In this document: one piece after another, positions 1-61,084 of the stretch
How the letters are laid out: each line of letters opens with the position of its first letter
Position numbering within the stretch: position 1 is the stretch's first letter
The notes under the pieces: model-generated
The model's database searches: none
What the model saw: only the letters and a program-made list of their open reading frames with translations
What the model was told of the DNA's origin: nothing
Translations under genes and position numbers: made by a program
From: Cyanidioschyzon merolae
Lineage: Eukaryota
Assembly (NCBI GenBank): GCA_000091205.1
Contig: AP006494.2
Length of the DNA stretch: 64,000 nt
Strand: one strand, 5' to 3'

Positions 1-1214
1 GCTCGCTCCGCCGATGCATCCGAACGCGACGTCGACGCCGACGCTCGTACAGAGCCAGACGCTAGGGCGGCGACACGCTCGGGAGCTGTGTCCGGTCCAG
101 TTTCAGCTACACCGCCAGCGGCTCCGGGTGAGGCACCGGCGGCCGCCAACTCGGAGGCGTGCCCCGTACCCGAGAGCCGCTCGGGTCCGCGGAGCACCCG
201 CGACGCACGCTCGCGCTCGTCCTTCCGCGCTGAGAGGAAGCGCCCGTCGAGCGCGGCAGCGATGGTCGGCACCGCCACGCCCCGCCGCAGTGCCTCCGTC
301 ATCGTCCACAGGCCAGTGCCCTTGCTCTCACTCCGGTCGAGGATTTGGTCTACGAGCGCTGGCGCCGACGCTGCCGACGAAGACGTGTCAGGCACGCGTA
401 GAATGCGCGCGGTAATCTCCACGAGGAAGCTTTGCAGGGCGCCCGCGTTCCACGAGGCAAATACTTCCGCAGCCGCCATCGCATCCAAGCCAACGGCACC
501 CCGAAGCAGGTCGTATGCCTCGCCGATCAGCTGCATATCGCCGTACTCGATCCCGTTGTGCACCATCTTCACATAGTTCCCCGAGCCGCCCGGCCCAATG
601 TAGGTAACGCACGGCCCAGAGCCGGGCACCTGCGCCGCAACCTGCTCCAGCAGCGGCGCAAGCTGCTGGTACGCCTCCCGTGAACCGCCCGGCATCAGGG
701 AAGGCCCGTAGCGCGCACCCTCCTCGCCACCGCTTACGCCCATGCCTACGTACAGGAGGCCGCGTGCCGCGACAGACGCAGCACGTCGCTCCGTATTCTC
801 GTACCACTCGTTGCCGCCGTCCACGATGATGTCGCCCGGCTCCAGAACCTCAGCCAGCGCCTCGACGGTTGCGTCGACTGCGCTCCCCGCCTTCACCAGC
901 AGGAATACCCGCCGCGGACGCTTCAGCGAAACCACAAACGACCGCAGGTCCGCAAAGCCGGTAACGCTCCCGCTGGCTGTCGTGTCATCTGCCGCGAGCT
1001 CCCGCTGCGCCCGCTCAACAGTCTCCGCCGTCCGCGCATACGTTCGATTGTACACAGAGACTCGCCAGCCGTGCGACGCTAGGTTCAGTGCAAAGTTCTG
1101 ACCCATGACCGCAAGGCCAATGACACCCGCGTCCGATATTGCGCGACCTGCAGGATGTGACGACGCGCTTTCCCGGACAGCACTCGACGGAGACGAGCCC
1201 TCCGCCGCAGACAT
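1..1214 (-). CDS. PGD: 6-phosphogluconate dehydrogenase (decarboxylating), 5' part; the ORF runs off the window start with no stop, so it is absent from the ORF track
   Basis: Manual translation of the minus strand from ATG (reverse complement of cat at 1212-1214) gives MSAAEG...GVIGLAVMGQNFALNLASHGWRVSVYNRT (NAD-binding signature), ...GDIIVDGGNEWYENTERR..., GMGVSGGEEGARYGPSLMPGG, and GPGGSGNYVKMVHNGIEYGDMQLIGEAYDLL. These are canonical 6PGD motifs. No stop codon before position 1. Confidence 0.85.
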   Translation of the reverse strand, partial: MSAAEGSSPSSAVRESASSHPAGRAISDAGVIGLAVMGQNFALNLASHGWRVSVYNRTYARTAETVERAQRELAADDTTASGSVTGFADLRSFVVSLKRPRRVFLLVKAGSAVDATVEALAEVLEPGDIIVDGGNEWYENTERRAASVAARGLLYVGMGVSGGEEGARYGPSLMPGGSREAYQQLAPLLEQVAAQVPGSGPCVTYIGPGGSGNYVKMVHNGIEYGDMQLIGEAYDLLRGAVGLDAMAAAEVFASWNAGALQSFLVEITARILRVPDTSSSAASAPALVDQILDRSESKGTGLWTMTEALRRGVAVPTIAAALDGRFLSARKDERERASRVLRGPERLSGTGHASELAAAGASPGAAGGVAETGPDTAPERVAALASGSVRASASTSRSDASAER

Positions 1215-1777
1215 GACGGCAGCACCACATGCTTGTGCGCGGCGGCCTCGGAGCAGGCACCAGCGAGCGCTTCGGACCAAGCTCAGGCTCCATGTCGGGT
1301 ACGTACGCCTGGGTGTCCAGGAGTGCGCACGCGGAGGCGCCCAGCGTCCGAAGCGCACCGCAGCGACAGGTGCGGCGGCCCAGCACAGCGCACCGCCACT
1401 GGGACTCCGGCGAGTGCCCGCTGTCGTCGCCATCCTTGAGGCGATCCACAGGTGGTTTGCGTGACCGAGGGCGGCCGGCCTGTTCACCGGGTGCGCCTCC
1501 TCGGTCTGCCGCGCTCTAGACGGGACAGCGCGCAGCGACTGGCCGTCTGGTGCTGCTTCCGGGACTCCTCAGCTGCCGATCCTGTGCCCCGGCGCGAGCA
1601 CTCGGCGACTTGACGTCTGGTGCTCGCTCAAGTCTCTCACGGTCACTACGACAACACGCACGCTCAAAAGCTGAGCACAGCGGAAAACAAAACCGATCCG
1701 CGATGCACGGGGGTGCTGCAGATCGATGCAGTCCGCGTCACGAGTTCTCGCAGTAGCACGAATACCACCGACAATAA

Positions 1778-1795
1778 CAGCAGCAGCAGCAGCAG
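1778..1795. repeat. (CAG)6 microsatellite
   Basis: cagcagcagcagcagcag read directly. Confidence 0.9.
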
Positions 1796-2013
1796 CAAGC
1801 AACGCAACGTACTCGGTCCACAAACAGCCGCAGTCAGCGACGAATGAGCGGCTCGCTCAGTAGCTCGCAACTGCAGCTCCAGCACGAGTACGGAACGGAT
1901 CGCAGACAGCCGCCACGAGGCCGCAGCGCTACGCACAGCGCGCGACGCACCGTCAAGCGCTATCCTGCGCTGACGGCCGCCGCAGCAACGCAGGCGGATC
2001 GAATGCGCACGGG

Positions 2014-2022
2014 TATATATAT
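2014..2022 (+). promoter_or_regulatory. TATA-like element (tatatatat) about 21-29 nt upstream of the 5S rRNA start
   Basis: gggtatatatatgaatatgg precedes the 5S start at 2043. Upstream TATA-like elements near -28 are known for 5S genes in plants and fungi. Confidence 0.35.
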
Positions 2023-2042
2023 GAATATGGAACCTTAATCAT

Positions 2043-2165
2043 CACTTGCGTTCAAACCATAGCTGGAAACACCGCGTCCCATCTCGAATCGCGAAGTTAA
2101 GCAGCATTGGGCTCTCTGAGTACTGTGATGAGGGATCGCACGGGAAACGGGAGTGACGCAAGTTC
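2043..2165 (+). rRNA. 5S ribosomal RNA
   Basis: CCCATCTCGAATCGCGAAGTTAAGCAGCATTGGGC...GAGTACTGTGATGAGGGATCGCACGGGAAACGGGAGTG matches the eukaryotic/plant-type 5S consensus (CCCATC..GAAGTTAAGC..TTGGGC..AGTACT..GGGAA). The 5' ACTTGCGT (2044-2051) pairs with the 3' ACGCAAGT (2156-2163) as helix I. Length is about 122 nt. Confidence 0.8.
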
Positions 2166-2167
2166 GC

Positions 2168-2171
2168 TTTT
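2168..2171 (+). terminator. Pol III-type T-run (tttt) immediately after 5S helix I
   Basis: agttcgcttttgcc; a T4 run 4 nt after the end of helix I. Confidence 0.4.
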
Positions 2172-2876
2172 GCCACCACGTCGCGCTGACCTGTTCTAAA
2201 GCGCGCATCAGCAGACGCGAGCCGGGTAGTCTGGCGGGGAAGCACTGTGAGGCCGGCTTGCTCCGGAATACACTTGCAACCGGTGGTCCAGATCGACGAC
2301 GATAACGAGTGGGTAACTGCGGAGGCCTGGTTGCACAGAGCGATCTTGCAGCGCTACGAACCGCAACACCTGCCGATATTCTGGAGGAGGTGCGATCGCC
2401 CCCGCACGACGAACCCCGTAGCACCCAGAGGGAGTACGCACCCGCGCTACACCATGAATGCTAAAAAGGGCGGCAGGGCAGGGGCTGTCGCCCCGAACGC
2501 GTATTGCAGACAAACTAGCGCGTCACGTTCATGTGCGTCGCGTTCTAGTCCGTCGCACAGCAACAGGAGCACTGGAAAAGATCATAAGCCAGCATGCTAC
2601 CGTGCAGCGCACTGTACCGCCTTCGCTTTACGTCATACGGAACTAGACAGGAAAGTTGCCACCACGCCAGCCACGACTCCATCGATGCGAGCATCGCGCG
2701 TGCGCACGCGTGCCCGTCGCATCGACCCCTAAGCCGCCGTGTACCGAACACAACTGCCTCCGTTCGTCGCGAATGCGCAGCAACCTTCCCTCTGACACAG
2801 AAAAACACATCGTGTCCATCACAGACGCCGGTGACAAGGCCGCGTATAGCACCAACGAACTCGCCACGAATCCGCA

Positions 2877-5800
2877 TCAGCATTGTTTGCGAGTATCTCG
2901 CGCCACGGTCCATTCCGGGATCGAGGCATTCAACGCCGTCGCCGGGGATGCGCCCAGAGTCGCCGTGCTCGAGAGCGCCTCGCGTCGTGCAACTAAATTC
3001 AAGCGCTCTGCGAAAAGCTCCTTCCGGTAAATCTCTACCTGCTCCCGCTCCCGAAGGAACTCCTCTTCGAGCTGCTCAAGTACTTTCATCTTTTCTTCGA
3101 GTTTCCTCACCTGAGTCTCGATCGCCTGTTCAGTAGCCCGGTGCAGCTCTAGATGCTCAATGGCGGCGAGCTCCGCGGCCCGAGTGGCCGCAGCGCCAAG
3201 CGCCGTTGCCGCAACGGCCTGGATTGCATTCGCATCCGCAAGCGCTTCCGGTGGTGCGTCGCTTTTCATGATCGCTGCCAACGCGGCCCGGGCAGCAGCA
3301 GCAGCGACATCCGGCGAGACGCTGTTCGCGAGAAACGCAATATGCGCCATCAAGGGGTTTCCGGCGTCGGCGAAGAGCGGCGGCTCGTTTCGTTCGGTCT
3401 GCGCCGTCTCGCCAGCTACAGCGGGTACCGCTAAACGACTCAAATCATCCTCGAGAAACGGATCTTCAATGGGTAGACGAATGAATTTGGTGATGCACGC
3501 ATCGCGGGAACGAGTGCCAACGTGCTGAGCAACCGCATCCCAGTCATCACCGTATGCCTCGATTCCTTCGAGAAGCTGCAGCACCTCAACATCAGTCCAG
3601 TCGTCCGTGCTCGGAGCTGTGAGGGTTCCAGTGGCGCTAGCCGCCGACCCCAGCGATAGAACAGGTCTTAATTCGATGAAATCTTTTCCATTGAAGTCCT
3701 CGGGAAACTTGCCCTGATGGTAGCATTCGGGGCACAGGTCCATATCGGCCTTGAGCAAACAGTGGTACCGGCGTTGGGAGCAGTCTCTCCCGCACACGTC
3801 ACACTGGTACTCAATGGCTGCCGCTGCGGCATATAATTCACGGCGCGTTGCCATGGGCGCCAGATGCATGCGCGATTTCGGAATACGCGACCCGTCGTCA
3901 AACAAGAATATGCGAGGAAGTCCGCCCTCAAGACCAGCTGAGCTTGCTGCCAGGCTTCCCGAGCTGGTGGAGATAAGCGTCGCACCGGAACCCGAAAACC
4001 CGCCGCTAACAGTCTGTGGGCGCGTCTCGGGTGCCACTCCGTAGTTAATCAGGCCCCACTGCTCCAGAAAGGCGTGCACACGCATGACGGCACCCACATC
4101 GCCAGCGAGATGCCTCCGAACAGCTGTGCCTGTTAGGTAGCGGGTCGGATCCTGCCGCCACGTGTCAATCATAAAATTTCGGTAAAGCATGTATACTTCG
4201 GGCGTTTTCGAAGCAAATTTCCCAGAGAAAAACTCCGGCAACGCGCGTCGCTCAATGTCGTGAATCGCATCGATGCGAAACCATCGGCTGTGCGCGGGAA
4301 CACGAATCGGCGACTTTTCACCAATCGCCGTGGCAGCAGCCGCAGCCGGAAGCGTTTCCCGCTCCGCGAGGCCACCGAGTGCCTCGGCGACGCGACGCGG
4401 TGCAAGCGATTCTCGATCACGTGGCGCGTGTGCTGCCGGCCCCGGAAGCGCATCCTCTTCGGCTGCCGCAGCGTCATTCCGCTCTTTTCGTCGTTCGCGT
4501 AATGCTTCTCGCTGCTGTGCTAACCTCTTCTGTAGCTGCTCATCCCGCGAAGATGCAGTTACATTGCGCATGCGCAGTGTCGCGTCATCTGGAACTAGCG
4601 GACGCACCGCTGGGCGTGAAATGCGCGGTGCAGCGCCGGCCGCAGCGCTTGGCTGCTCCGCATCGACCGCAGCGCCAGTCTCCGTTGTGAACGTGATCGG
4701 GCCAGCAATATTCGGTGCCGGAACTTGCTCCGCGGGTGCATTGCTCGAGCTTCCCGCGTCCTGGCTCGCTATCGGCGGTGCCAAGCGAACCTTGATCTTC
4801 ATCGGCTCTGCGGATTCCTCTCGGACGGCGCGCACCGTCACCCGTTCTGGCGTGCCGTCTGGCTCCGGCTTCACGGGACTCGGTTCAGCGGATTTTCGTT
4901 TCGACGGCGTCGGTGCTGCGGTCTTCGACTCGGATCCTCGCAGGTGGCCATCGATGCGCGAGGCCGATGGCGGTTTCCACTCATCGACATTGAGCTTCTC
5001 CTCTTCGGGTATTACCTCATAGTCGTTTTCATTGCACCACTCATTGAACTTTTCGCAATCCTCGAGAAATCTTTTCTGCACATGCCATATTTTGCCCTCA
5101 ATCACTCCGGAGAGATTCTCCTCCTCTCCGTGCAGTTCGCCGTCGGGATCTTCTACCTCCTGAGCGGGAATCCATGAATCGTACGAATCGGGAAAGTACC
5201 ACCAGTGCGTCAGTACTTGATTCCCTTTCCTTTTCAGACTCACGCAGTAGTCCTCTGCCTCGGTCTCAGCCTCTGTCGTGCCGGGTGGATCGGGGTACAC
5301 AATATGTGTTGCCTCGCGAGGCGACGAAACGACGGACGCACCATGCTTCCTTGCAATGGCGCTGAGGCGGTCAATCTCCGCCGAACCCAATGCCGGTGCG
5401 AAAAACAACCGCGGCATCTGGAGCTGTTTCCGTTTTATCAGTTCCCGCTCAACTTCTTGGAGCATCTCTAAAAAAACTCCAGTCATATCGGGTTTGTGGA
5501 GATCAAAACGCCGTATTCCACGAGCAACCCTGAACCGAAAACAGCACTCGAGAATCGTACGCAATGAGCCGTGTGCCGAATAGTCGTGAAAGAGACGATT
5601 CGGCAGTTTCGTCATGAAACCCCGAATTTCTGGCGGCTCGACGGAGTTCCGTCCGAGAACCCGCTCTTGAAACTGAAGCAGGTTACCGGTCAGGAGGCTC
5701 AGCGCGCGCGGGGAGACGTCCACAGAGTCGCCGGGTCGAAACCCCAGTTGTTCCGGCGGTTCAGCGTTTAGCTGTGCCGAGATTGCCTCGAACTTCGCAA

Positions 5801-6044
5801 TTTGATGAGGATCCTCGTAGTCTTTCATGGATATATTACAGGACTTTACCCGCTTCCGCCGCGAATCCGCAGGTCTCTGACCTTCAGCTGACGGAAAAGC
5901 AGTGTCTTCCCGCGCATCCGCTGCAGCTCCTGTGCGCACTTCTTCAGACGGGGTAGACGTCGACTTGTTCCCGTCCGGGATGTGTGTTCCGTTGCCTTGC
6001 TGCTCTCGCGCGGTGCGGGAGCGTCTCTTCCGCGGGGGAACCAT
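2877..6044 (-). CDS. SWI/SNF complex subunit, SWI3/SMARCC family (SWIRM, ZZ zinc finger, SANT; SWI3D-like architecture)
   Basis: SWIRM: WFRIDAIHDIERRALPEFFSGKFASKTPEVYMLYRNFMIDTWRQDPTRYLTGTAVRRHLAGDVGAVMRVHAFLEQWGLINYGV. ZZ finger: YQCDVCGRDCSQRRYHCLLKADMDLCPECYHQGKFPED. SANT: DDWTDVEVLQLLEGIEAYGDDWDAVAQHVGTRSRDACITKF. C-terminal coiled coil. The track start at 6053 is a GTG; the first ATG in frame is at 6044 (MVPPRKRR). Confidence 0.85.
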   Translation of the reverse strand: MVPPRKRRSRTAREQQGNGTHIPDGNKSTSTPSEEVRTGAAADAREDTAFPSAEGQRPADSRRKRVKSCNISMKDYEDPHQIAKFEAISAQLNAEPPEQLGFRPGDSVDVSPRALSLLTGNLLQFQERVLGRNSVEPPEIRGFMTKLPNRLFHDYSAHGSLRTILECCFRFRVARGIRRFDLHKPDMTGVFLEMLQEVERELIKRKQLQMPRLFFAPALGSAEIDRLSAIARKHGASVVSSPREATHIVYPDPPGTTEAETEAEDYCVSLKRKGNQVLTHWWYFPDSYDSWIPAQEVEDPDGELHGEEENLSGVIEGKIWHVQKRFLEDCEKFNEWCNENDYEVIPEEEKLNVDEWKPPSASRIDGHLRGSESKTAAPTPSKRKSAEPSPVKPEPDGTPERVTVRAVREESAEPMKIKVRLAPPIASQDAGSSSNAPAEQVPAPNIAGPITFTTETGAAVDAEQPSAAAGAAPRISRPAVRPLVPDDATLRMRNVTASSRDEQLQKRLAQQREALRERRKERNDAAAAEEDALPGPAAHAPRDRESLAPRRVAEALGGLAERETLPAAAAATAIGEKSPIRVPAHSRWFRIDAIHDIERRALPEFFSGKFASKTPEVYMLYRNFMIDTWRQDPTRYLTGTAVRRHLAGDVGAVMRVHAFLEQWGLINYGVAPETRPQTVSGGFSGSGATLISTSSGSLAASSAGLEGGLPRIFLFDDGSRIPKSRMHLAPMATRRELYAAAAAIEYQCDVCGRDCSQRRYHCLLKADMDLCPECYHQGKFPEDFNGKDFIELRPVLSLGSAASATGTLTAPSTDDWTDVEVLQLLEGIEAYGDDWDAVAQHVGTRSRDACITKFIRLPIEDPFLEDDLSRLAVPAVAGETAQTERNEPPLFADAGNPLMAHIAFLANSVSPDVAAAAARAALAAIMKSDAPPEALADANAIQAVAATALGAAATRAAELAAIEHLELHRATEQAIETQVRKLEEKMKVLEQLEEEFLREREQVEIYRKELFAERLNLVARREALSSTATLGASPATALNASIPEWTVARDTRKQC

Positions 6045-6054
6045 GAAAAACACG

Positions 6055-6879
6055 TCACAGAGTTACTAGCTCCACCGAAAGACTTTCAATAGTCGATAGC
6101 TTGAATATCAGTATACAGTAGTGGCGAGCTGCGCGCCCTAGATCATACGTCTCCAACTGATGCGCAGATGCCTCCCTGTCTTTTTTGGACCGGCCATCTA
6201 CTACTGGTTTCAACTTGTTTCCGTAAAATTCCACCTGGAGAGGTTCCCCCACAAAGTTGGCTCTTGTCAACTCTGGAGGCCTTCTTTCCATCACCGCACA
6301 TCTCCTGATATTGATAGCGACATTAAAGTCTCGGTTCACAAACTCCATACGTTTCTTGCCATCATTGGTTGTACTATCCGATGTGATTAGTCCACGATCT
6401 TTCGCCATCCCTTCCGGTGACTGCTTCGTCAGCGCTCCGTACTTTGATATATCCACAGGGCTCCTCTGGCACTTTTCGATCTGCACGCTCTGGAGTGTGC
6501 AACCCAGCTCATGGTGTGTATACGATGTTCGGAACTCATCTACAGGTATCGTAACGAGACGCCTTGCGCACTCCTTGTACGCTCTTGTCGTCGGAGCTGG
6601 TGGACATCCTTTTTGGGTCATCCAGCGCCCTGTTCCGCACGCTACTACGAGCCTCTGACTTTCATCCTCTTTGAAGGCACTCAACTCATTGAAAAAATTC
6701 GCGAATGCACGCGGTTTCCCACAATACAAGTTCATACGCAAACGAGCCCACCGGGGCTTTGCATACTCATTCCACAGTGCATCCCAATGAGCAACGCGAA
6801 CTTCCATGAATTCCTGACAAGCTTGAAAGTCTGCTCCGCGGCTCGTCATCTGGTTCATAGCTTCAAGGTGCTCTTGCAT
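6055..6879 (-). CDS. TnpB/Fanzor-like protein, C-terminal region (RuvC-II/Zn-ribbon/RuvC-III)
   Basis: ...RRLVTIPVDEFRTSYTHHELGCTLQSVQIEKCQRS...GKKRMEFVNRDFNVAINIRRCAV. The '..yTS..C' block followed by 'NRDxNAAINI' is the hallmark C-terminus of TnpB/Cas12/Fanzor RuvC nucleases. The start is a genuine ATG at 6877-6879. Confidence 0.6.
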   Translation of the reverse strand: MQEHLEAMNQMTSRGADFQACQEFMEVRVAHWDALWNEYAKPRWARLRMNLYCGKPRAFANFFNELSAFKEDESQRLVVACGTGRWMTQKGCPPAPTTRAYKECARRLVTIPVDEFRTSYTHHELGCTLQSVQIEKCQRSPVDISKYGALTKQSPEGMAKDRGLITSDSTTNDGKKRMEFVNRDFNVAINIRRCAVMERRPPELTRANFVGEPLQVEFYGNKLKPVVDGRSKKDREASAHQLETYDLGRAARHYCILIFKLSTIESLSVELVTL

Positions 6880-7115
6880 TCCTGCATTTCACGTCTCATT
6901 TTTCCCTCGCATTCAGTATTCCCGACTCTCGGTGATATCCCGCTCGTGAGAGGTTTAACTGATGCATGTCTTTCTGGCATAAATTGCCTTCAATACCATC
7001 CTCCGCAAGCTTGGGTACTGCGATGGTTATGATATTCGTATTCCCAGGGTCCGCGCCATCGACAATGTCGTTCTCATGCACTTCCTGCGTCGTAGGATAC
7101 ACCTGCTTCTTTTCT

Positions 7116-7730
7116 TCATGCTTCGTCATGGGCGATATCGAAGACGGACCAGTACGATCTGTCTCCAAGCGCCGATTGTGTACATATATGGCTACTCCAT
7201 CGCGTTCGATCATCCCCGTGAGTACATTTCGCTTGTCCTTTTTGTGACGTTTGAAATCGAAGATATTCTTCCAAGTACGTCTCCTGCTTTGTACCGGTGA
7301 ACTCTGTCTTCCTTACATCGAACTCCGGACAGATCTCCTTCATGATGCCGTACAGGATTCTGGAGTCGATCGTCACAACGCGTGACTTGATGTTGCACAA
7401 CGGCAGGACGTTGAAGTGCTTTCCCAGAAGCGCAGCCTTCCGTTTCTCCGACTCTTCATTTTTTCCCGCGCCTACGTCCTTTCCAGTCTTGCGTTCGAGG
7501 TCTCGGTCCAAAAACACGAGATAGTGCAGGATTAGGGTATAGGATCCTTTACCATATTTTTCCATATTTGATATTTTTTCTTGTGAATTCGCCAACCCCA
7601 GTACCGCAAGGTGCTTTCGAATAGCCGCGCGGATCACAGAAGCTTCATTCCTTCTCCTGCGTGACATCTTCCCGTCGACGAGTTCGATCTCTTGTGCATT
7701 CTTACTCTCGTTCGCGACGCCATTGATCAT
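7116..7730 (-). CDS. Putative upstream (N-terminal/RuvC-I) portion of the same TnpB/Fanzor-like gene
   Basis: [43 protein letters not shown]...[22 protein letters not shown] (basic NLS-like stretch; IDS..I could be a RuvC-I DxG-like block). It sits co-linear immediately upstream of the 6055-6879 ORF. Homology is not proven. Confidence 0.3.
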
Positions 7731-9710
7731 GGCTCATCTCCCTTTCCGAGCGAGACCCGGGTACAGCGCAAAGACGGCGCGTACCATGAAGCGTTTGGCG
7801 TTCATGGTCATCTGCTTCCTCAGGTTCGTGAGGTACTTCATTGCCCCGTAGGCGTAGACCTACGCGAGTCACCTCTGTATCTAGAACCGCTGCAGCGGTA
7901 TTTGGGGTAATTCTCGTTGAGGGCATGCACTCGCTCATTTTCGCCGACGTTTCCCCTCTACCAACGATCAAGTGGCAAATAAAGGTCCTGCTGAAAAAAA
8001 TCCTCCGGAACCGCGACTGTTTTGATGTCTGTCAGGTCGCGATACATCTATTTCACCAAATGCATTAGTCCTGAAAGAGCCTTTACATTACTCACGGAGT
8101 ATGACACGACACGGTTTCTGATGGCCTCTCGCATCTTTGCCTTGTACGCATTCTTGGTATGTCCAAGAGGACAGACTCTCACCACCGACTCTTCGTACTG
8201 TCGCCTTTCTTGCAGCCTTTGATGTCGGGCTTCCTTCTTTTGCTCCTTCTTCTCGTCCTGTTCTTCTTTGCTTAGCACTATTTTTCATTCTCTCCGTAAG
8301 TCGGCGACACTGTGCCTCCGGGATCCTCCACTTGCTTTTCCATACCTTTCCTTTTTAATTTTTTATGAAAAATAACGCTCGTTAAACGCGTCTGGTAGAA
8401 ACCGCGAAAAATCACTTTCGTTCACTGACATTAGGATTAGAACACAATTGAATTGAAAAACTATACGTTTCCACAACTTTAATGCAAATACAACTTGACC
8501 GGTAGAGCAACAAGACAACGAATGGTCACGAATGCATTTCCCTTCAAAGGCGACATGCGCGTCGTGTCTCGAGGCTGCCAGGTTTGGAGATGCGCGTATC
8601 GAGCGCGCTATATAGAACAAAGAACAGAGACTCACTTGTAACTAGCAACGAGATAACGAGTTCTTTCCCTGTCTACGATCAACGTCAAAAATGGGGAAAA
8701 GATTTCCATATTGTCCAAAATATTCCTCATAGGCGGACGGTCCCGCGAGCCGGACAAGTCTACCAGGCTGGTGCTTCCTGCTCCCCCAGCGGCAGGCGCT
8801 TTCGTGAACTCCGAGCAGCGCGTCCGCAACGCCATTCATTGTGGAATTACAAGTCGGCAGAATGCTTCTGGGCGTGTCGCCCTGGTCGCAGAGGGCTCCT
8901 AATACGCTGCTTCACGCTGCCGCAGGCAGAGGGTCTGTCTGCCCAGGTATCAGCCTCTCAAAATGATATTTAGCCCTGATTCCGTAGCAGATGGAGCACG
9001 CCTCGAGCCGATGCCCTCTGTGGTATAAAAAAGCCGTTCTGGCTCTAAGAACTATCTGCTCCAGCTGTTCAGGCGCAAAGGCGGATACGGAAAGGCAGGC
9101 ACTAGGCACACGATAGGACATAGGAAACGACCAGAATATCCGAGAAGAAATGTAGGTAATGTAACTTGGATGTAGGGGGTTTGATGGATACTTCACCGTG
9201 CACTGAAAAAAAAACACACGAAAAAGTAAGAAAAGAAAAATGCGCTCCATCGGGGAACGCTGGCCTGCGTTTTGTCATCGCATCGCGCCGGCCGCCAGGC
9301 AGGCTCCTGCCCAGCAATCGCGTCCCTGCGCTACTGGCCGCAGCGTTTCGATGCATCGCATCTGTTTCACCTCCGTGCACTGCTGCGGATCTGATGCGCT
9401 CCGCGAGATCGCAGCGCGCAGCCGCCACCGGCGTGCTGGAGCGCGTTATCAAAATTCAAATAGCAGCAGCGGAGGCTCTGCGTACGCTGCTGGCCGTCGT
9501 CGTGCATCAGCGCTGCGCCGTCGCAAACGCTGCCTACGAACCTTGAAGTTGGCTTGTTGTGTGCTTGGTTTCGTCGAGTGGTTTCGTAGGAGTCTCGACA
9601 TTGTTAGGCCCGATATCCGCTCAAGTTTGTACTCGCAAAACGTCAGTTTGTGAAAAAGTTCTTGCTGCATAGCTTCGTATACGAAAAGATATTTGAGAGA
9701 GTTCTGCACC

Positions 9711-11664: not shown

Positions 11665-12475
11665 GGATTCGCTCCAACAACCATTACAGAGCAGACCGTG
11701 TGCCCTAGTGCACGCAAAGTTCCGTCACCCGAACCGCGTCTATGCCAGCGAAACGCATCTAAAGCCCTAGCCCTCAGCGACCTGACACGGCTTCCTTGCT
11801 GACTGCACCTCTACGAAGCGAGCAGTACTCAGTGGTGCGAAGCGCAGTCGACGAGTCAGAGAAGGGACAGCAATGCTGGAACTGGATCCTATTTGAAGCC
11901 ACGGTGAATACAACCGTTCTGTAAGCGTTGTTGCGCGCACGCGTTCTAGTCTTTCAACTCGGTTCTGTGACACCCCAGGGAGATGGAACCGAATGCTATT
12001 CCGCATTGTATGGCAGGAGATCGAAACCACGATGCACAATGCTGTATAGGTCGAAGACGAATTGCCTGTAGCATCTATTCGTTACTGAACAGTGCAAGGG
12101 GGACTACATTCCTTCTTCAGGTCAGTCATACAACAGCACTCAGATGGACGAGGAATACTGAAAGGGAGAAGTGCATGCGCTTCGTACCAAAACCGTTGTT
12201 CTCAAAGAGTGCTTATGGTCAGTGGTATAAAACAAACCATTGAACACCTGACGGAAAGCAAAATCAACGATAGCAGCCACCTCGGATGTCTCTGTCTCTC
12301 AACAGCTTGTTCGTGTAGTCCTGCAAACACTGGAATAACGTCGCAAAAAAAGTCCTAGTTCGATCAAGATCAACTTTCACTGAAATCGCGCCTACAGCAA
12401 CCCTGGAACGTTGTGATCGGTATGAAGCAGAGCAACGTCGGTTTATTTTAGTCGATTAGACTTTCCTCGGGTGAA

Positions 12476-12867
12476 ATGGTTAGAGCGTATACGGGTATTC
12501 GCGAAGCAGATATCCCATTCTATATACGATTGACCTCGAAGAGAACGAGGATTTCATCTGTTCTAACTGTGGTGGATTCATTCGCCTGCCTCGATTTCGC
12601 TCGTAACGAAGGCTCATACAACAGTACCAAACACTCTGTCGAATCGTTGAAGACTTGCCCCTGTCATCTAGTGACGTCCTTCAATTAGGCAACATGGTAT
12701 ATGGCCTCTAGCCTTGGGTTCGGACTTTTGCCGTTTCTGTTGAGGCCGAGCTGCTTTCCATTCGTCCGTACGCTCCGAGGTTCAACTCCATCGAAAGAGC
12801 GTTTTCTATTGTGAAGCGTAATAATCGCTACATCCTGCGAATCGCTGAAGCGTTTCGCAAATTGTGA
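12476..12867 (+). mobile_element. Tc1/mariner-type (DDE_3) transposase remnant, frameshifted
   Basis: The frame ending at 12867 reads ...LLSIRPYAPRFNSIERAFSIVKRNNRYILRIAEAFRKL*, compared with Tc1/IS630 LPPYSPDLNPIE..W..lK. The upstream ORF (TVVDSFACLDFARNEG) is possibly the second-D region. It is homologous to the fragments at 36205-36537 and 47686-47934. Confidence 0.45.
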
Positions 12868-13190
12868 CAACAAGGCATATGTCATCTTTCTTCCGCAAGT
12901 CCTTTTTCCTCCGGGAACCTCCGCACCTCTTGGCATAAACGAGAGCATTCATTTTCAAAAGTAAAAACTCAAGGAAAATGTATAGAAATGTAAGCCGGGG
13001 ATCCTGGCTGTCTGGGGTGCCTGACTGCTGGAAACAAAAGGAACCCATTTCCATGCTCACAGGAACAGGAGAGAACCACGAAAGCACGAGCAGGAGACCA
13101 GACCTCAAAACTTGCCCAAAAGGGGAGACTACGACGAGCCTGTAGTGAACGTCTGCCTTCCTGGTCATACAAAACATCCGTACAAACAAA

Positions 13191-14325
13191 GGTAGCCTGT
13201 TACGCGAGGAACGCTCGCTCCGCTTCCCGCGCCTTGACACATCTCGTCACGCAACGATTCGTACGAGCTGTGGACGAAGGGATGCCAGCTGCTCATGTTT
13301 CTCTTCAGCGTCTCGATCAAACCTGCACGCGACAGCACAAGTGATGCTCGTTGCAGCAGATGCGATGAGCCCTGGTCGTGGAACCTGAGGGTTGCACAGT
13401 CGCCTCCCAGCGTCTGCTGACGAGTGGACGCGTTGGCTAGTTGCTGCGTCGCATCGCTGCTTCAGGAATCCATACGTCTGCAACGCACATGCCAAAACGT
13501 ATCGAGCCTAGCCCAGCAATCGTGTGCAGATCGCTGCGGGGCGCTTCATGAGGCGCACCCTGCCGCCGATGTCCTCGTTGCACCCGGGCCTCACTGGCCC
13601 GAAACAATGCGGAAAGCTAAAAGGGACGCTACACTCTAGATCGTAAAGAAGCGTCGAAATAGCGCTCGCGGATGATCTCGTGGCAGGTGCACACGATACC
13701 GCGCTGCTGTCGCCTCTGACTTTGACTCGACGGAGGCTAGAAGCGAGCAGTCGCCAACTTGCTCGATAAGCTGGAGAAGCGAACGACCGAGGAGTCGCGT
13801 CGATTGTTGCTTGCCTACGCAAACGGACGTGCTGGTGCGTCCGCGTGTCGCACACCAGCGCCCTCGACGGGAGCGTCCAGCGAGTACACAGGGATCGCAG
13901 CTGGGCGATTTCCCTGCAAGCGTTCGCGACGATACGGAAGCATCACGAGCGGGTGTGCGCAGCGATGCTCGCCGAGAAGCCAATCGTGAAACAGAGCCAG
14001 CTGCACGAGATGGTGCACGGTACGCTGGGCGGGCGCCAGACTGCGAGGGAATCAAAGGCGGGCCTCCCTGTACAGTGCGAGTCGACGAGCAACAACGCAG
14101 ACAGGCGCTCGCTGCACCGAGACCCGAACGCCTCGATCAGCATATGGACGAGTCACGTGCTTCCTGCGCGTCCAGCGGCGTTGTGTGGAACCATTCTTTG
14201 AGGTGATCGTTCCGTACACAGTCTAGACATTGTGCTGAAACGCTCAAGTCTATCGATGAGGAGAAATCGATTGCCAACAGAGAGAGCACGGAATGACCCA
14301 TCGGGGGCAGGGCGCTGGTACGGTA
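13191..14325. repeat. Direct repeat copy A (about 1.13 kb), about 98-99 percent identical to 23028-24162
   Basis: Identical ORF translations appear in the track for both copies with a few substitutions (e.g. 13759 MLDKLEKRTTEESRRLLL vs 23594 MLDKLEKRLTEESRRLVL). Boundaries were read from where the flanks diverge (shared ...agcctgttacgcgagg... to ...cagggcgctggtacgg). Confidence 0.85.
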
Positions 14326-14694
14326 CGCGTCGACCATGCATCAAACCTGGACCAACATGGACATATACATACCTGGAACAATATCCTACCCTATCCGTGA
14401 ACGATCATCGTGTCCCAGTATTCGACATTCATGCATATACCGTAAAACTGCACGCTTGGATAGTGCCTTTGGCCTTCAATCCATGCAAGCATCGGAACGG
14501 CATCCAGCGAGAGCTCAAGATGGCGCCTCACGTGCAAAGCACGAAGGACTGCAATGCGGACAGCAGGCTGGGCGCTGTCCACCGCGCGTTCCTGCCAGCT
14601 GCGCAAGCGCCGCCATCGGCTCGAGCTGCAATCTCCACACACGTGCGCGTACCGTAGCGCTGGAAAATGTTCGGTCAGTGTTCTGGGCGCCGCT

Positions 14695-20833: not shown

Positions 20834-23027
20834 CGGTGCACCACTACAAATAGATCTGTGAGGCGTATTCATGTAGCGTTCTCGCGCTTGAAGAGCGAAG
20901 TGCCATGCGGTGCGAGACTAGGGCGAGAAACCGTTTACATGAGCGGTATTCCGGATGACACCCAGTGGGTTTTACAGTGAGTCTCCGATCAACATGATCT
21001 GAAGCACGCAATGCTGAAATAGCCAGCAATACTGCGAATTAGAGGCGGGATCCTTGAAGGATGCTCTTCCAAGCGCGACCTGTATGTGATTGGGTGCGTT
21101 CGTAGCTGCTCGTTGTATCCTCGTGTATAAATGTATATATCGGGAGTTTATCTGTGCGCACATAATGGAGCGACACAGGGCGGGCTTTAAGCCGTTCATG
21201 CCTTCGGGAGAGAACGACAGCCTGAACTGGTCGACTGCCAGCTGCGAATGGCACGGAACTTTCCGCGCTAACGACGGGGAGGGCGCAGGAACCACGTCTC
21301 CTAGGCACGCAGGCCGGGATCGAAGAGTAGGACTGGGATCGCGGATCGGTGCCCTACGGTTTCGATGACGTCCCAGATTTGGAAATCGTGAAACATGCTC
21401 TGAGAATCAACTTGGAACGCTCGTGTCGCCTTGCTTACCGCGAATTTCTCGACATGAAAGACGACGCTAGTGTCGTGGCGGGCGCATGAACCTGGGCGCC
21501 GATCATGAAGGGCGTGTAATGAGCAACCAGGCGGTATATCAGCTAGACGAGCAGGCCTCGGCAAGTCAGGGAACGCGTTCAAGACAAAGTACTCTGAACA
21601 TTTGCCGGCTATCACCGTGTAAGCGGATAGAACGCTGCTGTGCGTCGCTGGGGATTCTGACGAGTGGCAAGCTTGTGTGTGGTTTATCATCGATGCCGCA
21701 GTCGGATGTATACTCAGCCCGGCGAATTCTGGAATGCCCGCACAAATACGCATTCATCAGAATTTGTTTCTTTTCAAGCCGGTATTCGACGAACGGGATA
21801 TCCCGAGCATTGGAGGCAGATTGCAGAACGGCTTCATGCAGTCACTGCTACCTTCGGAAAACGTCCATACTTCTACAAGGGAATCATTCCACGCTCAGCA
21901 GGTGGATAACAGACCCGTCTCGTAGTCCCTATGATGAACGCCGGGCTCTAAATCCAGCAAGTATCGAACACTATGTACGCGATATTCTCCTCGTTAGTCG
22001 ACTCCATTCCGTTCTGAAGGATCTCTAGGAAACGCTATCAGCGAAGCGACAGGATGTGGACGATTCTTCCCGTTGATATGTCCGATAATGAAGCGACACG
22101 GATGGACAATGAAAAAGCCCGCTTCTATGGAAGACCATCGCGCCTTGAACGATGCACTATGGACCTTGCATTGAAGTGCGAACGCTTGTGATATGAGGGA
22201 GCTTGGTTCGTCTCACTCGAAGAGACGTCATTCGGGGCCAATGGTATACCTGCACATCGGTATTCGAAGAGCTGCATACGGTTGTTCTCGTTGAGGACAT
22301 GGGCGAGTATTTCGAAAACATGCGGCGATGCAATTGTGTGATCTCCGAAAATATCCTGTAAATCGCCAGACGTTCGGGTTTATTCAACAACTTATCCTTT
22401 GTTGAGGCATTCTTCGTGGCTACTTCTTCCCGCTTTCTTTTCTTCTGCGCTTCGCCGACAACGTCGATTTTCATCCCTTGCGAGCGGCCAAGGAGTACGC
22501 AGCTGGACCTCGTGGCAAACTGCTCTTCCTGGCAGCCGCTTCCCATCGTTCCCGCCAGTCAAAGTTGCCTACTCTGTTGCCAAACGCAGTTTCTGCTCTC
22601 ATGAACCCATGGATGAGTTGTTCGTATCCGTCACGTCTGTCTTCGACCAGTCGCTCTGTACCTCCCGTAACCCTGAAATGCTCTGTTGCTGTTCTGCTTG
22701 TGCCCGGGAGGGAATGTTCGAAAGCGCAAGCATCGCTCTTACCGCCCAGCAGATGCATCTGAATCCCTGGGGGAAAACGGAGATATAAAATAGCTACCAA
22801 TACTATTACATCGCAGCAGGAAAAAAGCGGGCAAGAATGGAACACTATACAACTGCACTGGACAAGGACGAAAAAACGCTTCCGGAAAGAGGACGCTAAA
22901 GAACAACCAGGGAAAACTGCTGGAGCGGAATGACCAGTCTGAAACTGTTGTTATTGCCGCACTACAAAACCGCATCAACGGGAGTATCCTCCAGGACACG
23001 AAATGCGGGACGTCATGACGGAACGTG

Positions 23028-24162
23028 CAGCCTGTTACGCGAGGAACGCTCGCTCCGCTTCCCGTGCCCTGACACATCTCGTCACGCAACGATTCGTACG
23101 AGCTGTGGACGCAGGGATGCCAGCTGTTCATGTTTCTCTTCAGCGTCTCGATCAAACCTGCACGCGACAGCACAAGTGATGCTCGTTGCAGCAGATGCGA
23201 TGAGCCCTGGTCGTGGAACCTGAGGGTTGCACAGTCGCCTCCCAGCGTCTGCTGACGAGTGGACGCGTTGGCTAGTTGCTGCGTCGCATCGCTGCTTCAG
23301 GAATCCATACGTCTGCAACGCACATGCCAAAACGTATCGAGCCTAGCCCAGCAATCGTGTGCAGATCGCTGCGGGGCGCTTCATGAGGCGCACCCTGCCG
23401 CCGATGTCCTCGTTGCACCCGGGCCTCACTGGCCCGAAACAATGCGGAAAGCTAAAAGGGACGCTACACTCTAGATCGTAAAGAAGCGTCGAAATAGCGC
23501 TCGCGGATGATCTCGTGGCAGGTGCACACGATACCGCGCTGCTGTCGCCTCTGACTTTGACTCGACGGAGGCTAGAAGCGAGCAGTCGCCAACTTGCTCG
23601 ATAAGCTGGAGAAGCGATTGACCGAGGAGTCGCGTCGATTGGTGCTTGCCTACGCAAACGGACGTGCTGGTGCGTCCGCGTGTCGCACACCAGCGCCCTC
23701 GACGGGAGCGTCCAGCGAGTACACAGGGATCGCAGCTGGGCGATTTCCCTGCACGCGTTCGCGACGATACGGAAGCATCACGAGCGGGTGTGCGCAGCGA
23801 TGCTCGCCGAGAAGCCAATCGTGAAACAGAGCCAGCTGCACGAGATGGTGCACGGTACGCTGGGCGGGCGCCAGACTGCGAGGGAATCAAAGGCGGGCCT
23901 CCCTGTACAGTGCGAGTCGACGAGCAACAACGCAGGCAGGCGCTCGCTGCACCGAGACCCGAACGCCTCGATCAGCATATGGACGAGTCACGTGCTTCCT
24001 GCGCGTCCAGCGGCGATGTGTGGAACCATTCTTTGAGGTGATCGTTCCGTACACAGTCTAGACATTGTGCTGAAACGCTCAAGTCTATCGATGAGGAGAA
24101 ATCGATTGCCAACAGAGAGAGCACGGAATGACCCATCGGGAGCAGGGCGCTGGTACGGGCCG
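23028..24162. repeat. Direct repeat copy B (about 1.13 kb), partner of 13191-14325
   Basis: See copy A. Confidence 0.85.
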
Positions 24163-24681
24163 AGTCAGCAATCCACCAAGTCTAAAGCATCTTATATACA
24201 CTCCAGGACCCATTCTTTTAGGGCATTGCCGAACGATAATTATCTTGCTCGATTATGGAACCACACCGACTATACTCGAGGCACCCGCGGTGCATCATTG
24301 TGCTCTACCACTAGGTGCCGCGTTGATTGCACATGCTGCATCGCGATGCTCGTGATTCCATGAACGAGGCCCCGCTCCAAAGCGACCTTCGCAGCGTCGC
24401 CTCAGAGAGCCGCTACCGCGCGCTAAAGCATGCCGACACCTATCGTTCAACGCGGGCTCCCTGACCACCACCATGTCAACGTTCCGTCCAAGAACACTCG
24501 TACGCTGAACAAGTCTCGGGCATTGGCGCACGATCTATGTCCTTCTTGTACTGGTTTGTACAGATAGCGGACGTTGATTGCTTGCGCACTGACGCGTTTG
24601 CGTCACCGAGATTCCACTATCATCGTTTTTAGTCTACGATGCGGTGTTCTCTGGCTTCACGGGTGTTGCAGGTCTAGGGCT

Positions 24682-47339: not shown

Positions 47340-47934
47340 TTGATATCAGCGGCAGTGAAGCGAGACGCACGGACAAAGAAACCGGTATGCACGTATGGAG
47401 AACCGACTCGGATTGAACTCCTTACAATCGATTTCGTACAGAAACGCGAACGCCTACTTCAAAAGCGACGGGTGTTCTTCGCACTCGATGAGACCGAATT
47501 CGGGCGGCATGGTCGACCTGAATACTGGTCATCAAGAGTAGGCAAGATTCTGTCTAGAAAGAAGAGAAACATGCCCGAATCACGAGTACATCAGCGCTGG
47601 CGGCGACGCAATCTCGTGGTCGCCCAAACATCGCCAAAACAGTACGGGATCCTTCAACAACCCATGCTTCATCAAACCACTTCAAGTGACCTCCTTCTCC
47701 TACTCCTGTCTCCTGCTCTTACATAACATCACTTTCCATCGCTCGACAGAGGTCAAGGAGCACGAAGCTGCGACTGAAGCTGAGCAGCTCTTCGGACGAA
47801 CCCATTCTGCCATGTTCATTCCAGTCTCAGGCGTCTTCTCTGTTGTCAAACACCATGTTTACGCTCACAAATCCATAGACGAGTCATTCGCATCCGTGCC
47901 ACCGAAACATGCGAAACACCATGAGGGATCATGA
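47340..47934 (+). mobile_element. Third Tc1/mariner-type transposase remnant (frameshifted/deleted)
   Basis: RVFFALDETEFGRHGRPEYWSSRVGK (first-D block, similar to LFFSVDETCFGRN at 36.7 kb). A downstream ORF reads MFIPVSGVFSVVK (compared with FFIPPHTPWLNRIGGMFSIVIRN), apparently with an internal deletion. Confidence 0.35.
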
Positions 47935-60185: not shown

Positions 60186-61084
60186 CATCCGTTCGGAACC
60201 AGGGTCGATTTGTCCCAGGTTTCAGACCGGAATGCACGAGCGAGACAAGATGCGGATGATACTTAGTTGCGTCGCCAACGATGTTATTAGCGGAAATGAC
60301 CTTCAGGCACCATAGCCAGTGCGCCAGCTAACCCGTTGCCATTTCTTGTTCCACGCAGTGATGAACGAGCCCCTGAAAGCGCACAGAACCTCGGTCTCTG
60401 GCAAGGTATGATGAGCGCTGTGGTAACGCTGCTGCTCCATCGCGTGCGTCCTGTCGCTGCTGCCTGCTGCTTTTCTTAACGTTGTCGGGGAACAGGAATG
60501 GACGGCGGTACAGGGAACGGGTTGTGCAAAGCCCCGGAACGCTCGTGGCGTTTCGTACACGCCTCTCGTGCCGACTCGAGCGCTAGACTCGTAGCAGTAA
60601 ACAAGATAACGTAACATTTTGTGAACATGTTGGCAGATGTCACGCAGGTTGGGAGCAGTCACGTTTGTTATCTCTGCGCGTTTCGAGATAACGCGCCCGT
60701 GGACGACCCTGTGCTCAGCACGGGGCGTGCTACTTGACACCATCTATACTTGCATCCACAGGTCGAGAACGTCGCACGCAGTCACTGCGTCTACATCAGT
60801 CGGTTTCCAGTCAGCGTACCCGAATCCGGCCCATGTGCTCCGTTTCGGAAGCGTGGCATTCCCATAAACGCTGCACGGTGCGCTGCACTGGGCAGAACGC
60901 TGAACAAGCGTGCACGCAAAAAGACGATCACGATGACTTGTTCCTCGTCAGTGCAGTCTGCGTACCTGCATTCCCGTCAACAAACCGCCACAAACGGAAC
61001 AGGGTGCCTCAGGTGCAGAGGCTGGAGCGTCGCGGCAGTACGCATCCGTCTCCCCGACTAGTCGCATGCAGGTACTGGAGCGCA

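Follow-up and report, generated by a model that had tools for sequence, protein, structure and literature searches.

Three co-linear, minus-strand open reading frames in the genome of Cyanidioschyzon merolae, an alga of acidic hot springs, raise the question of whether they form a gene for an RNA-guided nuclease or are the remains of one. They lie in a stretch of 64,000 nucleotides (contig AP006494.2), termed here the window. A first-pass annotation, made from the letters of this DNA, described them as a TnpB/Fanzor-like RuvC nuclease gene in an AT-richer island, and left both readings standing: a eukaryotic RNA-guided endonuclease candidate if intact, a recent pseudogene if broken. We conclude, with a probability of about 95%, that the region from 9280 to 6080 (minus strand) is a full-length, decayed copy of CMe-1A, a non-autonomous element of C. 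merolae of ~3.2 kb that has an intronless open reading frame for the protein CMe-1, and that the three open reading frames are fragments of this frame. The object is thus already known, the family having been published in 2013 for the C. merolae genome.

CMe-1A was described as a Fanzor1 transposon of C. merolae with a consensus of 3169 bp (Bao and Jurka, 2013; Mob DNA 4:12, PMC3627910). About 150 copies are reported, each ~80% identical to the consensus; some copies are said to be still intact, and the published transposon class is 'unknown' (PMC3627910). CMe-1, a 734-aa protein encoded by a single exon, belongs to the founding Fanzor1 set (PMC3627910). The 5′ module of CMe-1A, about 635 bp, is shared with the element TE-N2_CMe (PMC3627910).

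Over its full length, the published consensus can be aligned to window positions 9280-6080 (Table 1). BLASTN with this consensus gives a single HSP, which takes consensus 84-3137 to window 9176-6111 over 3072 columns, and TBLASTN with the CMe-1 protein gives matches that tile positions 8343-6181 in three frames. The copy shares with the CMe-1A family the host genome, the per-copy identity (81%, as against the reported ~80%) and the lack of terminal inverted repeats. It also has the same layout of 5′ module, leader, single Fanzor1 open reading frame and short 3′ UTR. Neither terminal inverted nor direct repeats were found at the element ends (6080 and 9280), and the 13 CMe-1A copies with both ends display no consistent target-site duplication. 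The 3.2-kb element has no TnpA-like open reading frame and no other Pfam domain. Its GC content is 0.493; the window as a whole has 0.556 and the neighbouring gene 0.586, and the island noted at first reading is therefore real. The annotated open reading frames stand, at the positions and on the strand first given, but the feature is larger than was noted: the relic of the gene covers 8343-6138, within the element as delimited above.

Table 1. Features of the CMe-1A copy and of the adjoining host gene. E-values for open reading frames come from the 63-relative profile (Z = 1e6).
Feature	Coordinates	Strand	Remarks
CMe-1A element, decayed full-length copy	6080..9280	-	consensus 1-3169, 81% identity; BLASTN 82.6%
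5′ non-coding module, counterpart of solo element TE-N2_CMe	8620..9280	-	73% identity to consensus 1-635
Rest of 5′ leader	8344..8619	-	consensus 636-905, 81.5% identity
Fanzor1 (CMe-1) pseudogene	6138..8343	-	7 frameshifting indels, 4 premature stops; 72% identical to 734-aa consensus
Fourth open reading frame, further upstream in gene	8048-8278	-	profile 3-76, E = 3e-7
Program-made ORF A, 204 aa: N terminus of relic, on REC side	7116..7730	-	profile 200-323, E = 4.6e-16
Program-made ORF B, 105 aa: RuvC-I and 'TDG' region of WED	6896..7213	-	profile 325-410, E = 3.3e-12
Program-made ORF C, 274 aa: RuvC-II and RuvC-III, with degenerate zinc-ribbon region between	6055..6879	-	profile 418-609, E = 1.4e-62
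Fanzor1 WED 'TDG' motif, here RDG	7196..7204	-	consensus MIETDGVA, window MIERDGVA
RuvC-I motif GADPGNT (DPG aspartate)	7037..7057	-	aligns with 'DPGR' of solved Fanzor1
RuvC-II motif VDEFRTS (glutamate)	6523..6543	-	aligns with DEFRTS (Parasitella) and DEYKTS (Spizellomyces) of Fanzor1
RuvC-III motif NRDFN (aspartate), within NRDFNVAINI	6322..6336	-	counterpart of 'NRD' in solved Fanzor1 proteins
3′ UTR and right end, expected omegaRNA scaffold position	6080..6137	-	63% identity to consensus
Host SMARCC/SWI3-type SWI/SNF subunit gene	2880..6044	-	Pfam SWIRM, SWIRM-assoc, Myb/SANT and ZZ; identical to BAM80683.1

At the translated amino acid level, the profile of 63 relatives matches four open reading frames of the window, and these are in co-linear order; the signal well exceeds chance. 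Alignment to the 734-aa consensus joins the three annotated frames into one protein in which RuvC-I, RuvC-II and RuvC-III are all placed, across frames. The D/E/D motifs of the RuvC domain survive, with RuvC-I in a frame other than that of RuvC-II and RuvC-III. The strings quoted at first reading, IPVDEFRTSYTHHELGC, KKRMEFVNRDFNVAINIRRCAV and a basic stretch of 20 residues, are present in the open reading frames; the nuclease motifs, however, sit mid-way in the 274-aa frame and not at its end, as had been stated. The final 28 codons of this frame (6138-6055) run on, out of frame, into the 3′ UTR and flank, because a +1 insertion at 6186 shifts the true stop of the family (TAG, 6140-6138) out of frame. 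The basic stretch of the 7116-7730 frame, taken at first to be a nuclear localization signal, is a mutation artefact: the RRRR run corresponds to 'SRRSTNEAS' of the consensus and is internal to the protein. The real basic N-terminal stretch of the family (KKRK...KKQKREARRQRLQERR) is found upstream of this, at about 8290-8200, and the window copy has it in broken form.

The assignment to Fanzor1 needs a diverse set of relatives. The relatives found comprise 193 protein matches, 446 related metagenome stretches and 1860 representative clusters at E ≤ 0.001; together with the published copies, they show a multi-copy family. Scanned singly against Pfam, the window open reading frames match nothing at E ≤ 1, the OrfB_IS605 and OrfB_Zn_ribbon models proposed for comparison included. 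ORFs B and C joined and compared by phmmer with PDB sequences give only a chance match (E = 1.3), and hmmsearch of the PDB with a 25-sequence profile of close relatives finds nothing relevant. An AlphaFold2 model of one relative, P0118, made with the 25-sequence alignment, has a mean pLDDT of 43.5 and is unusable. The proposed comparison with Fanzor alignments did succeed with the profile of 63 diverse relatives, which matches the solved Fanzor1 chains of Parasitella parasitica (9cf0, E = 2.2e-21), Spizellomyces punctatus (SpuFz1, 8gkh, E = 2.5e-13) and Guillardia theta (GtFz1, 9cer, E = 1.3e-7), and whose alignment places the TDG, DPG, DEFRTS and NRD motifs in the order found in these proteins. 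No TnpB, Cas12 or Fanzor2 chain in the PDB is matched; the significant matches are to Fanzor1 only. Because the open reading frames and the shallow profile match nothing relevant in the PDB, the link to Fanzor1 depends on this profile, reached in two steps, together with the classification of 2013. The similarity between CMe-1 and solved Fanzor1 proteins is thus a profile-level homology, visible only with the diverse relatives, and the original call of a TnpB/Fanzor-family RuvC nuclease sequence can be narrowed to Fanzor1. A family of this kind is missed by Pfam and by single-sequence PDB searches, and similar relics elsewhere will be overlooked or over-read.

Fanzor1 proteins are characterized by the TDG motif, and a RuvC-I DPG signature has been described (PMC10711439). 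The canonical C4 zinc finger, CxxC...CxxC, which helps to define TnpB/Fanzor proteins, is placed between RuvC-II and RuvC-III (PMC3627910, PMC10711439). The solved Fanzor1 proteins keep this finger after RuvC-II, whereas both CMe-1 and the window copy read THHELGC...EKC at the zinc-ribbon position, and in CMe-1 this is followed by an insert of ~45 residues before RuvC-III. The TnpB-style zinc ribbon claimed for the 274-aa frame is not supported: the canonical CxxC...CxxC is absent from CMe-1 and from the window copy, and no CxxC is found in 33 of the 35 parseable relatives. The absence extends to the whole published family and marks a variant of Fanzor1 rather than exclusion from it. Accordingly, the check reveals a family that is without the canonical zinc ribbon.

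The lesions of the window copy are of two kinds. Frameshifting indels are at 8294 (-1), 8000 (+1), 7941 (-1), 7860 (+2), 7274 (+1), 6905 (-2) and 6186 (+1), and premature stops start at 8287, 8050, 7736 and 6891. The nonsense codons replace CGA (CGA>TGA), GAG (GAG>TAG) and TGG twice (TGA at tryptophan codons 203 and 485). When the relic is read in the consensus frame, the amino acid identity given in Table 1 holds across all 734 codons, and there are 205 non-synonymous and 85 synonymous codon changes relative to the consensus, a pattern of substitution that looks unconstrained. A syntenic metagenome contig from another strain carries an ortholog (L001) that is 98.9% identical to the window copy. 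Within the part covered by this contig, all six frameshift indels and three stops (codons 99, 203 and 485) are common to both. As the lesions recur in this ortholog and the substitutions appear free of constraint, the CMe-1 relic is an old pseudogene, and neither an intron-bearing gene nor a recent casualty. The first-pass annotation was right in suspecting a pseudogene but not in calling it recent, as the copy is ~19% diverged from the consensus and, over the stretch that the contig covers, its frameshift indels and three of its stops are shared with the other strain's ortholog. Sequencing error is ruled out as the source of the lesions by their recurrence in an independent metagenome contig. 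An alternative code in which TGA specifies tryptophan, suggested by the TGA at tryptophan codons 203 and 485, is also ruled out, since long open reading frames under bacterial table 11 (TGA = stop) exactly match annotated host proteins; the other two stops, CGA>TGA and GAG>TAG, disfavour it as well.

How, then, would an intact CMe-1A element work? By analogy with studied Fanzor1 and TnpB systems, intact CMe-1 would associate with an omegaRNA that is transcribed from the 3′ end of the element and whose guide part would run into the flanking DNA; the RuvC site would cut matching DNA, and cleavage may help the transposon to persist or spread. The D...E...D arrangement of the RuvC domain in CMe-1 is that of bacterial TnpB (IS200/IS605, IS607), Cas12f and PF07282, and we infer that CMe-1 may act in an RNA-guided manner as TnpB and Cas12f do. 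Unlike these bacterial systems, the window open reading frames have no Pfam match, no TnpB or Cas12 match in the PDB and no TnpA partner. As far as its reading frames predict, the window copy cannot make the full CMe-1 protein, because there is no continuous frame and RuvC-I is read in a frame different from that of RuvC-II and RuvC-III. It differs from intact CMe-1A not only in its frameshifts and stops but also in a mutated WED motif and a decayed 3′ hairpin. The window copy is an old, neutrally decaying relic, fixed a short distance upstream of the SMARCC gene.

The co-linearity of the three open reading frames and the readability of all three RuvC motifs might be explained by an intact Fanzor gene, in which introns or programmed frameshifts lead to a full-length RNA-guided nuclease. 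This is barely credible. Introns are ruled out by the family consensus, an uninterrupted exon of 734 codons, and by the nature of the breaks, which are indels of 1-2 bp and four in-frame nonsense codons instead of insertions bounded by GT...AG; the supposition that the upstream frames supply the N-terminal part holds in so far as they do, via frameshifts. The preponderance of non-synonymous changes (205 against 85) speaks against a maintained protein, and the host genome is very intron-poor, with long uninterrupted open reading frames that exactly match annotated proteins. A more modest proposal is that the 274-aa frame by itself gives rise to a truncated RuvC-like protein, expressed and possibly domesticated. 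This frame, the longest that is open, begins with ATG, retains RuvC-II and RuvC-III, and is also open in an ortholog (P0001) of 97% identity. Yet the RuvC-I aspartate is in another frame, the C-terminal 28 residues are read-through, and openness in two strains that are 1.1% diverged is expected by chance. The frame is not among the annotated 10D proteins in the homology search, where its best match is the 97% identical metagenome open reading frame. We regard this proposal as very improbable, if slightly less so than an intact gene.

The AT-richness relative to the surroundings could suggest a foreign origin, i.e. a Fanzor2 or prokaryote-type TnpB (IS200/IS605, IS607), or a recent viral or bacterial transfer, in place of a resident Fanzor1 transposon. 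Weak matches to PF07282 (Cas12f1-like TNB) in some relatives point the same way; these are sub-threshold, are found in 11 of the 63 relatives with a best E of 3.1e-5, and also count among the evidence for Fanzor1 homology. The restriction of significant PDB matches to Fanzor1, the presence of the Fanzor1 TDG motif in the family, and the lack of a TnpA-like open reading frame and of other Pfam domains in the element all argue to the contrary, as do the ~150 old copies in the genome (PMC3627910) and the synteny of the window copy in a second strain. The chance that any of these origins applies is very slight. The reading as a decayed, resident CMe-1A copy is retained, and with it the hope of an endonuclease candidate at this site falls, the gene not being intact. 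The locus itself is of little consequence: it is one inactive copy of ~150 and adds no new candidate nuclease. Should intact CMe-1 copies still exist, they could interest genome editing in view of their source in an acidic-hot-spring alga, but this is a matter separate from the flagged locus. Neither the window nor the 80-83 metagenome loci examined contain an intact full-length open reading frame; the longest open frame among the loci, of 772 codons (L039), has its start out of frame.

Most of the CMe-1A copies that were folded end in a stable hairpin, which occurs in two registers; copies with a terminal hairpin of 8 bp or of 10 bp are found. In the window copy the terminal hairpin of the better-preserved copies is decayed, and the final 34 nt reach no better than -4.0 kcal/mol when folded. 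RNAalifold was applied to 32-33 copies, over their terminal 345 nt and terminal 70 nt, and gives no meaningful consensus (-8.7 and -0.2 kcal/mol, respectively). For the two hand-named registers, 75-77% of cells are paired, compared with 38-66% when the registers are slid, with covariation not clearly above that of shuffles. The only Rfam match in the window is one 5S rRNA. The bases just before CMe-1A form a pyrimidine/T run, and TT is usually the first dinucleotide of the 3′ flank; a clear target-site duplication is lacking. Non-autonomous elements of the Helitron2/Helentron type, considered as a possible class for the carrier, are marked by a 3′-terminal hairpin, by T-rich (T|T) insertion sites that lack a target-site duplication, and by an autonomous partner that encodes RepHel; CMe-1A has a terminal hairpin in most folded copies and an ambiguous 'TC' start at its 5′ end.

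The chromatin-remodeller gene noted next to the open reading frames is confirmed as a SMARCC-type subunit gene (Table 1). Its product is one of four window proteins that are exact NCBI matches to C. merolae 10D, the others being BAM80687.1, BAM80690.1/CYME_CML069C and BAM80693.1. The ATG of the SMARCC gene is 35 bp downstream of the 3′ end of the element, in the same orientation. This placement recurs: 13 of ~29 distinct CMe-1A 3′ ends have a same-strand open reading frame of at least 200 aa that starts 5-130 bp downstream, against a background of 4.0% for oriented positions drawn at random outside open reading frames in these sequences (binomial P about 2e-11). An SMC gene, at locus L002, is another that has a CMe-1A copy upstream. 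Perhaps CMe-1A is targeted to, or selectively retained at, sites a few tens of bases upstream of host starts in the sense direction; the core promoter or 5′ UTR of the SMARCC gene would then be provided or shaped by the 3′ end of the relic, and likewise at other genes such as SMC. This is a tentative proposal, which we consider possible but doubtful; the bias is measured, and its regulatory or targeting interpretation is speculation. The promoter-proximal, sense-oriented placement of CMe-1A is a lead for genome-wide study.

The window contains five Fanzor-like relics in total. The four other than the CMe-1A copy pair a DDE_3 transposase remnant with a divergent Fanzor1 remnant that follows directly downstream. 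This second family is 32-43% identical to CMe-1 and is distinct from the flagged element. It resembles the Tc1/mariner-type Fanzor1 carriers PUl-1 and PGv-1 (Bao and Jurka, 2013; PMC3627910), unlike CMe-1A, which has no transposase. The DDE_3-associated family is not listed for C. merolae in the 2013 paper (PMC3627910), and provides a further genome-wide lead. An uninterrupted metagenome relative of 610 aa displays the same DDE_3 and Fanzor1 arrangement.

CMe-1A, a transposable element of Cyanidioschyzon merolae, is present in ~150 copies, each ~80% identical to a 3169 bp consensus (Bao and Jurka, 2013; PMC3627910). It has no terminal inverted repeats (TIRs), its target site duplications (TSDs) are given as undetermined and its published class is 'unknown'. 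It encodes CMe-1, a 734 aa single-exon protein of the Fanzor1 group, and has a 5′ 635 bp module in common with the solo element TE-N2_CMe (PMC3627910). The consensus DNA and protein were taken from the supplementary files of that paper. Window positions 9280–6080 (minus strand) align end to end with the DNA consensus at 81% identity. BLASTN gives a single HSP (82.6% over 3072 columns), and the consensus protein tiles positions 8343–6181. The window belongs to the genome in which CMe-1A was defined, and the flagged locus, with ORFs A, B and C, is one of its catalogued copies. By sequence, the flagged object is a copy of an already described transposon family, in the genome of its description.

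The ORFs lie exactly where the first-pass annotation placed them and contain the peptide strings it cited. The AT-richer setting that it described is also present, with a GC content of ~0.49–0.50 over 6001–8000 vs 0.56–0.63 in the minus-strand gene to the right, as is the chromatin-remodeller neighbour. The latter is of the SMARCC type (SWIRM, SWIRM-associated, Myb/SANT and ZZ domains) and is BAM80683.1, one of four long window ORFs identical to C. merolae 10D proteins; the others are BAM80687.1, BAM80690.1 (CYME_CML069C) and BAM80693.1. Beyond the SMARCC gene, ~700 bp from its 3′ end, Rfam RF00001 matches (94.3 bits) a 5S rRNA gene encoded on the opposite strand, at 2044–2164 (plus strand). 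The window yielded no tRNA genes.

Coordinates of Fanzor1-related features in the window (A3, profile of 63 diverse relatives)
Feature	Position	Strand	Remarks
ORF A	7116–7730	−	204 aa; A3 200–323
ORF B	6896–7213	−	105 aa; A3 325–410
ORF C	6055–6879	−	274 aa; A3 418–609
Further ORF matching A3	8048–8278		A3 3–76
RuvC motif GADPGNT	7057–7037	−	window copy
RuvC motif VDEFRTS	6543–6523	−	window copy
RuvC motif NRDFN	6336–6322	−	window copy
WED motif TDG of Fanzor1	7204–7196	−	window copy; mutated to RDG
DDE_3 + Fanzor1 relic	12445–13884	+	DDE_3 remnant 12445–12914
DDE_3 + Fanzor1 relic	22111–23815	+	DDE_3 remnant 22111–22638
DDE_3 + Fanzor1 relic	37180–35852	−	DDE_3 remnant 36760–36298
DDE_3 + Fanzor1 relic	47373–49683	+	DDE_3 remnant 47373–47916
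CMe-1A 5′ non-coding module fragment	53609–53831	−	TE-N2_CMe-like, ~70–80% identity
CMe-1A 5′ non-coding module fragment	63692–63822	−	TE-N2_CMe-like, ~70–80% identity
CMe-1A 5′ non-coding module fragment	61098–61214	−	TE-N2_CMe-like, ~70–80% identity

CMe-1A belongs to a large repeat family. By homology, 193 unnamed proteins were recovered from a few JGI and ENA metagenomes, mostly fragments of 200–600 aa. The best match, P0001, is 97% identical; on its contig a SMARCC-type gene is again the neighbour, the ORFs are broken as in the window, and 3.2 kb of DNA match the window at 98.9% identity. TBLASTN with longer relatives tiles window 7859–6181 in three frames. A scan of metagenome contigs gave 446 related stretches. 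An exhaustive profile search at E ≤ 0.001 gave 1860 representative clusters, among which uninterrupted proteins of 600–700 aa are common. Many CMe-1A copies have a ~75 bp tandem unit (~25 aa, KHEEKKEAxPATQEVxxNDFVV) repeated two to six times right before RuvC-I, as in proteins P0002, P0009 and P0015. A single unit is present in the window copy (7051–7130; consensus 2117–2196) and in the published consensus.

At the protein level, a Pfam scan of the three ORFs detects no family at E ≤ 1, and joined ORFs B and C match no PDB sequence. Fanzor proteins are very divergent, and these negative results were therefore pursued via relatives. Profile A3 was built from 63 members of the 1860-cluster search, including two of the window's own family group. 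Against PDB it matches the Fanzor1 proteins of Parasitella (9cf0, E = 2.2e-21), Spizellomyces (8gkh, E = 2.5e-13) and Guillardia (9cer, E = 1.3e-7), and no TnpB or Cas12 chain. The family motifs FTGxIETDG, DPG, DEFRTS and NRDxNAA align in these matches with their counterparts in the solved proteins, and A3 matches the window ORFs co-linearly. Taken literally, the absence of a Pfam hit is one of the outcomes that the first-pass annotation had named as refuting. The core reading, a remnant of a TnpB/Fanzor RuvC nuclease, is right. PF07282 (Cas12f1-like TNB) gives sub-threshold matches in 11 of the 63 relatives. A structure model of one relative, P0118, from a shallow alignment was unusable (pLDDT 43.5).

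Two finer points of that reading do not hold. TnpB and Fanzor proteins are defined by a CxxC...CxxC zinc ribbon, whereas the CMe-1 clade is without it: CMe-1 reads THHELGC...EKC, has no CxxC pair and carries a ~45-residue insert ahead of RuvC-III. CxxC between RuvC-II and RuvC-III is absent in 33 of 35 parseable relatives in A3; in the window, the ribbon region in question is 6480–6523. The RRRR run read as a nuclear localization signal is SRRSTNEAS in the consensus, and the real basic stretch of CMe-1 is N-terminal, outside 6055–7730.

Relative to the consensus coding sequence (906–3110), seven indels shift the reading frame of the window copy (8294, 8000, 7941, 7860, 7274, 6905 and 6186), and four premature stops interrupt it, at codons 20 (CGA>TGA), 99 (GAG>TAG), 203 and 485 (both TGG>TGA). 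ORF C overruns the true stop (6140–6138) as far as 6055 because of the +1 insertion at 6186. In the consensus frame the copy is 72% identical to CMe-1; its 205 non-synonymous and 85 synonymous codon changes are judged to look like little or no purifying selection.

Introns had been suggested for the gaps between the ORFs and are ruled out, as the breaks are frameshifting indels and stops relative to a single-exon consensus. Sequencing error is likewise ruled out. Over consensus 1062–3169, the part that it spans, the metagenome ortholog L001 has each of the six indels as well as the stops of codons 99, 203 and 485; the lesions are therefore neither errors nor recent, contrary to the 'recent' pseudogene first envisaged. 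The Fanzor1 gene of the window copy is a pseudogene, and the copy itself, of a non-autonomous transposon, is an old relic that no longer functions.

By analogy with studied Fanzor1 proteins (PMC10432273, PMC10711439), the bound partner of an intact CMe-1 would be an omegaRNA from the 3′ end of the element, a guide of ~15 nt would read into the flank, and the RuvC site would cut matching DNA. Most of 32 distinct copies from other loci have a stable terminal hairpin at the 3′ end, in one of two registers: CGTTTTTC-TTTT-GAAAGGCG (8 bp, 4 nt loop, −6.5 to −9 kcal/mol) and CGTCGTTCGA-CTT-TCGAACGGCG (10 bp, 3 nt loop, −13.4 kcal/mol). The registers are subfamily-specific (e.g. L008:2615–2646 and L007:10209–10240). 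A few hairpin changes look compensatory, e.g. TTCGA/TCGAA to TTCTA/TAGAA. Joint folding of the copies yielded next to no common structure, and covariation measures did not clearly exceed their controls. A role in DNA, as a signal read by a transposase, is as likely for the hairpin as one in RNA. Identity to the consensus falls to 63% in the 3′ UTR of the window copy, where the terminal hairpin has decayed (6080–6110).

The hairpin is followed by a semi-conserved 3′ flank, TT(T)GTTGGTG, usually beginning TT(T)G, and the 5′ flank is a pyrimidine/T-rich run, often GATTYYTTTTC. The published boundaries may miss ~10 nt, or CMe-1A may favour a particular target. No TSDs or TIRs were found at copy ends, which fits the published 'class unknown'; the ends loosely resemble Helitron2-type carriers.

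CMe-1A copies show a striking tendency to lie close upstream of a host gene that runs in the same direction. Among the window copy and those in loci L002–L083, 13 of ~29 distinct 3′ ends are followed, 5–130 bp downstream, by the start of an ORF of ≥200 aa on the same strand, vs 4.0% of oriented non-ORF positions drawn at random from these sequences (P ∼2e-11). The SMARCC ATG is 35 bp past the 3′ end in the window (6044–6080), and an SMC gene follows the copy in L002.

TBLASTN with the longer relatives revealed four further, more divergent Fanzor relics in the window. In each, a Fanzor1 remnant is immediately preceded, in the same orientation, by what is left of a DDE_3 (IS630/Tc1-mariner-like) transposase, and the Fanzor1 remnants are 32–43% identical to CMe-1. 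On locus L084, a DDE_3 gene stands just upstream of P0118, a 610 aa metagenome relative that is uninterrupted but without its N-terminal end. Fanzor1 is known to be paired with mariner-type elements, and this arrangement matches that pairing. The DDE_3-linked family is not listed for C. merolae by Bao and Jurka (2013; PMC3627910).

A direct duplication of 1151 bp (13194–14344 and 23029–24179, 98.3% identity) contains one divergent Fanzor relic and is possibly a recent segmental duplication or gene conversion. No DNA-level similarity was detected between the transposase relics just upstream of its two copies. Of the 5′ module fragments, that at 61098–61214 is within a short tandem repeat with a 72 bp period (61084–61313).
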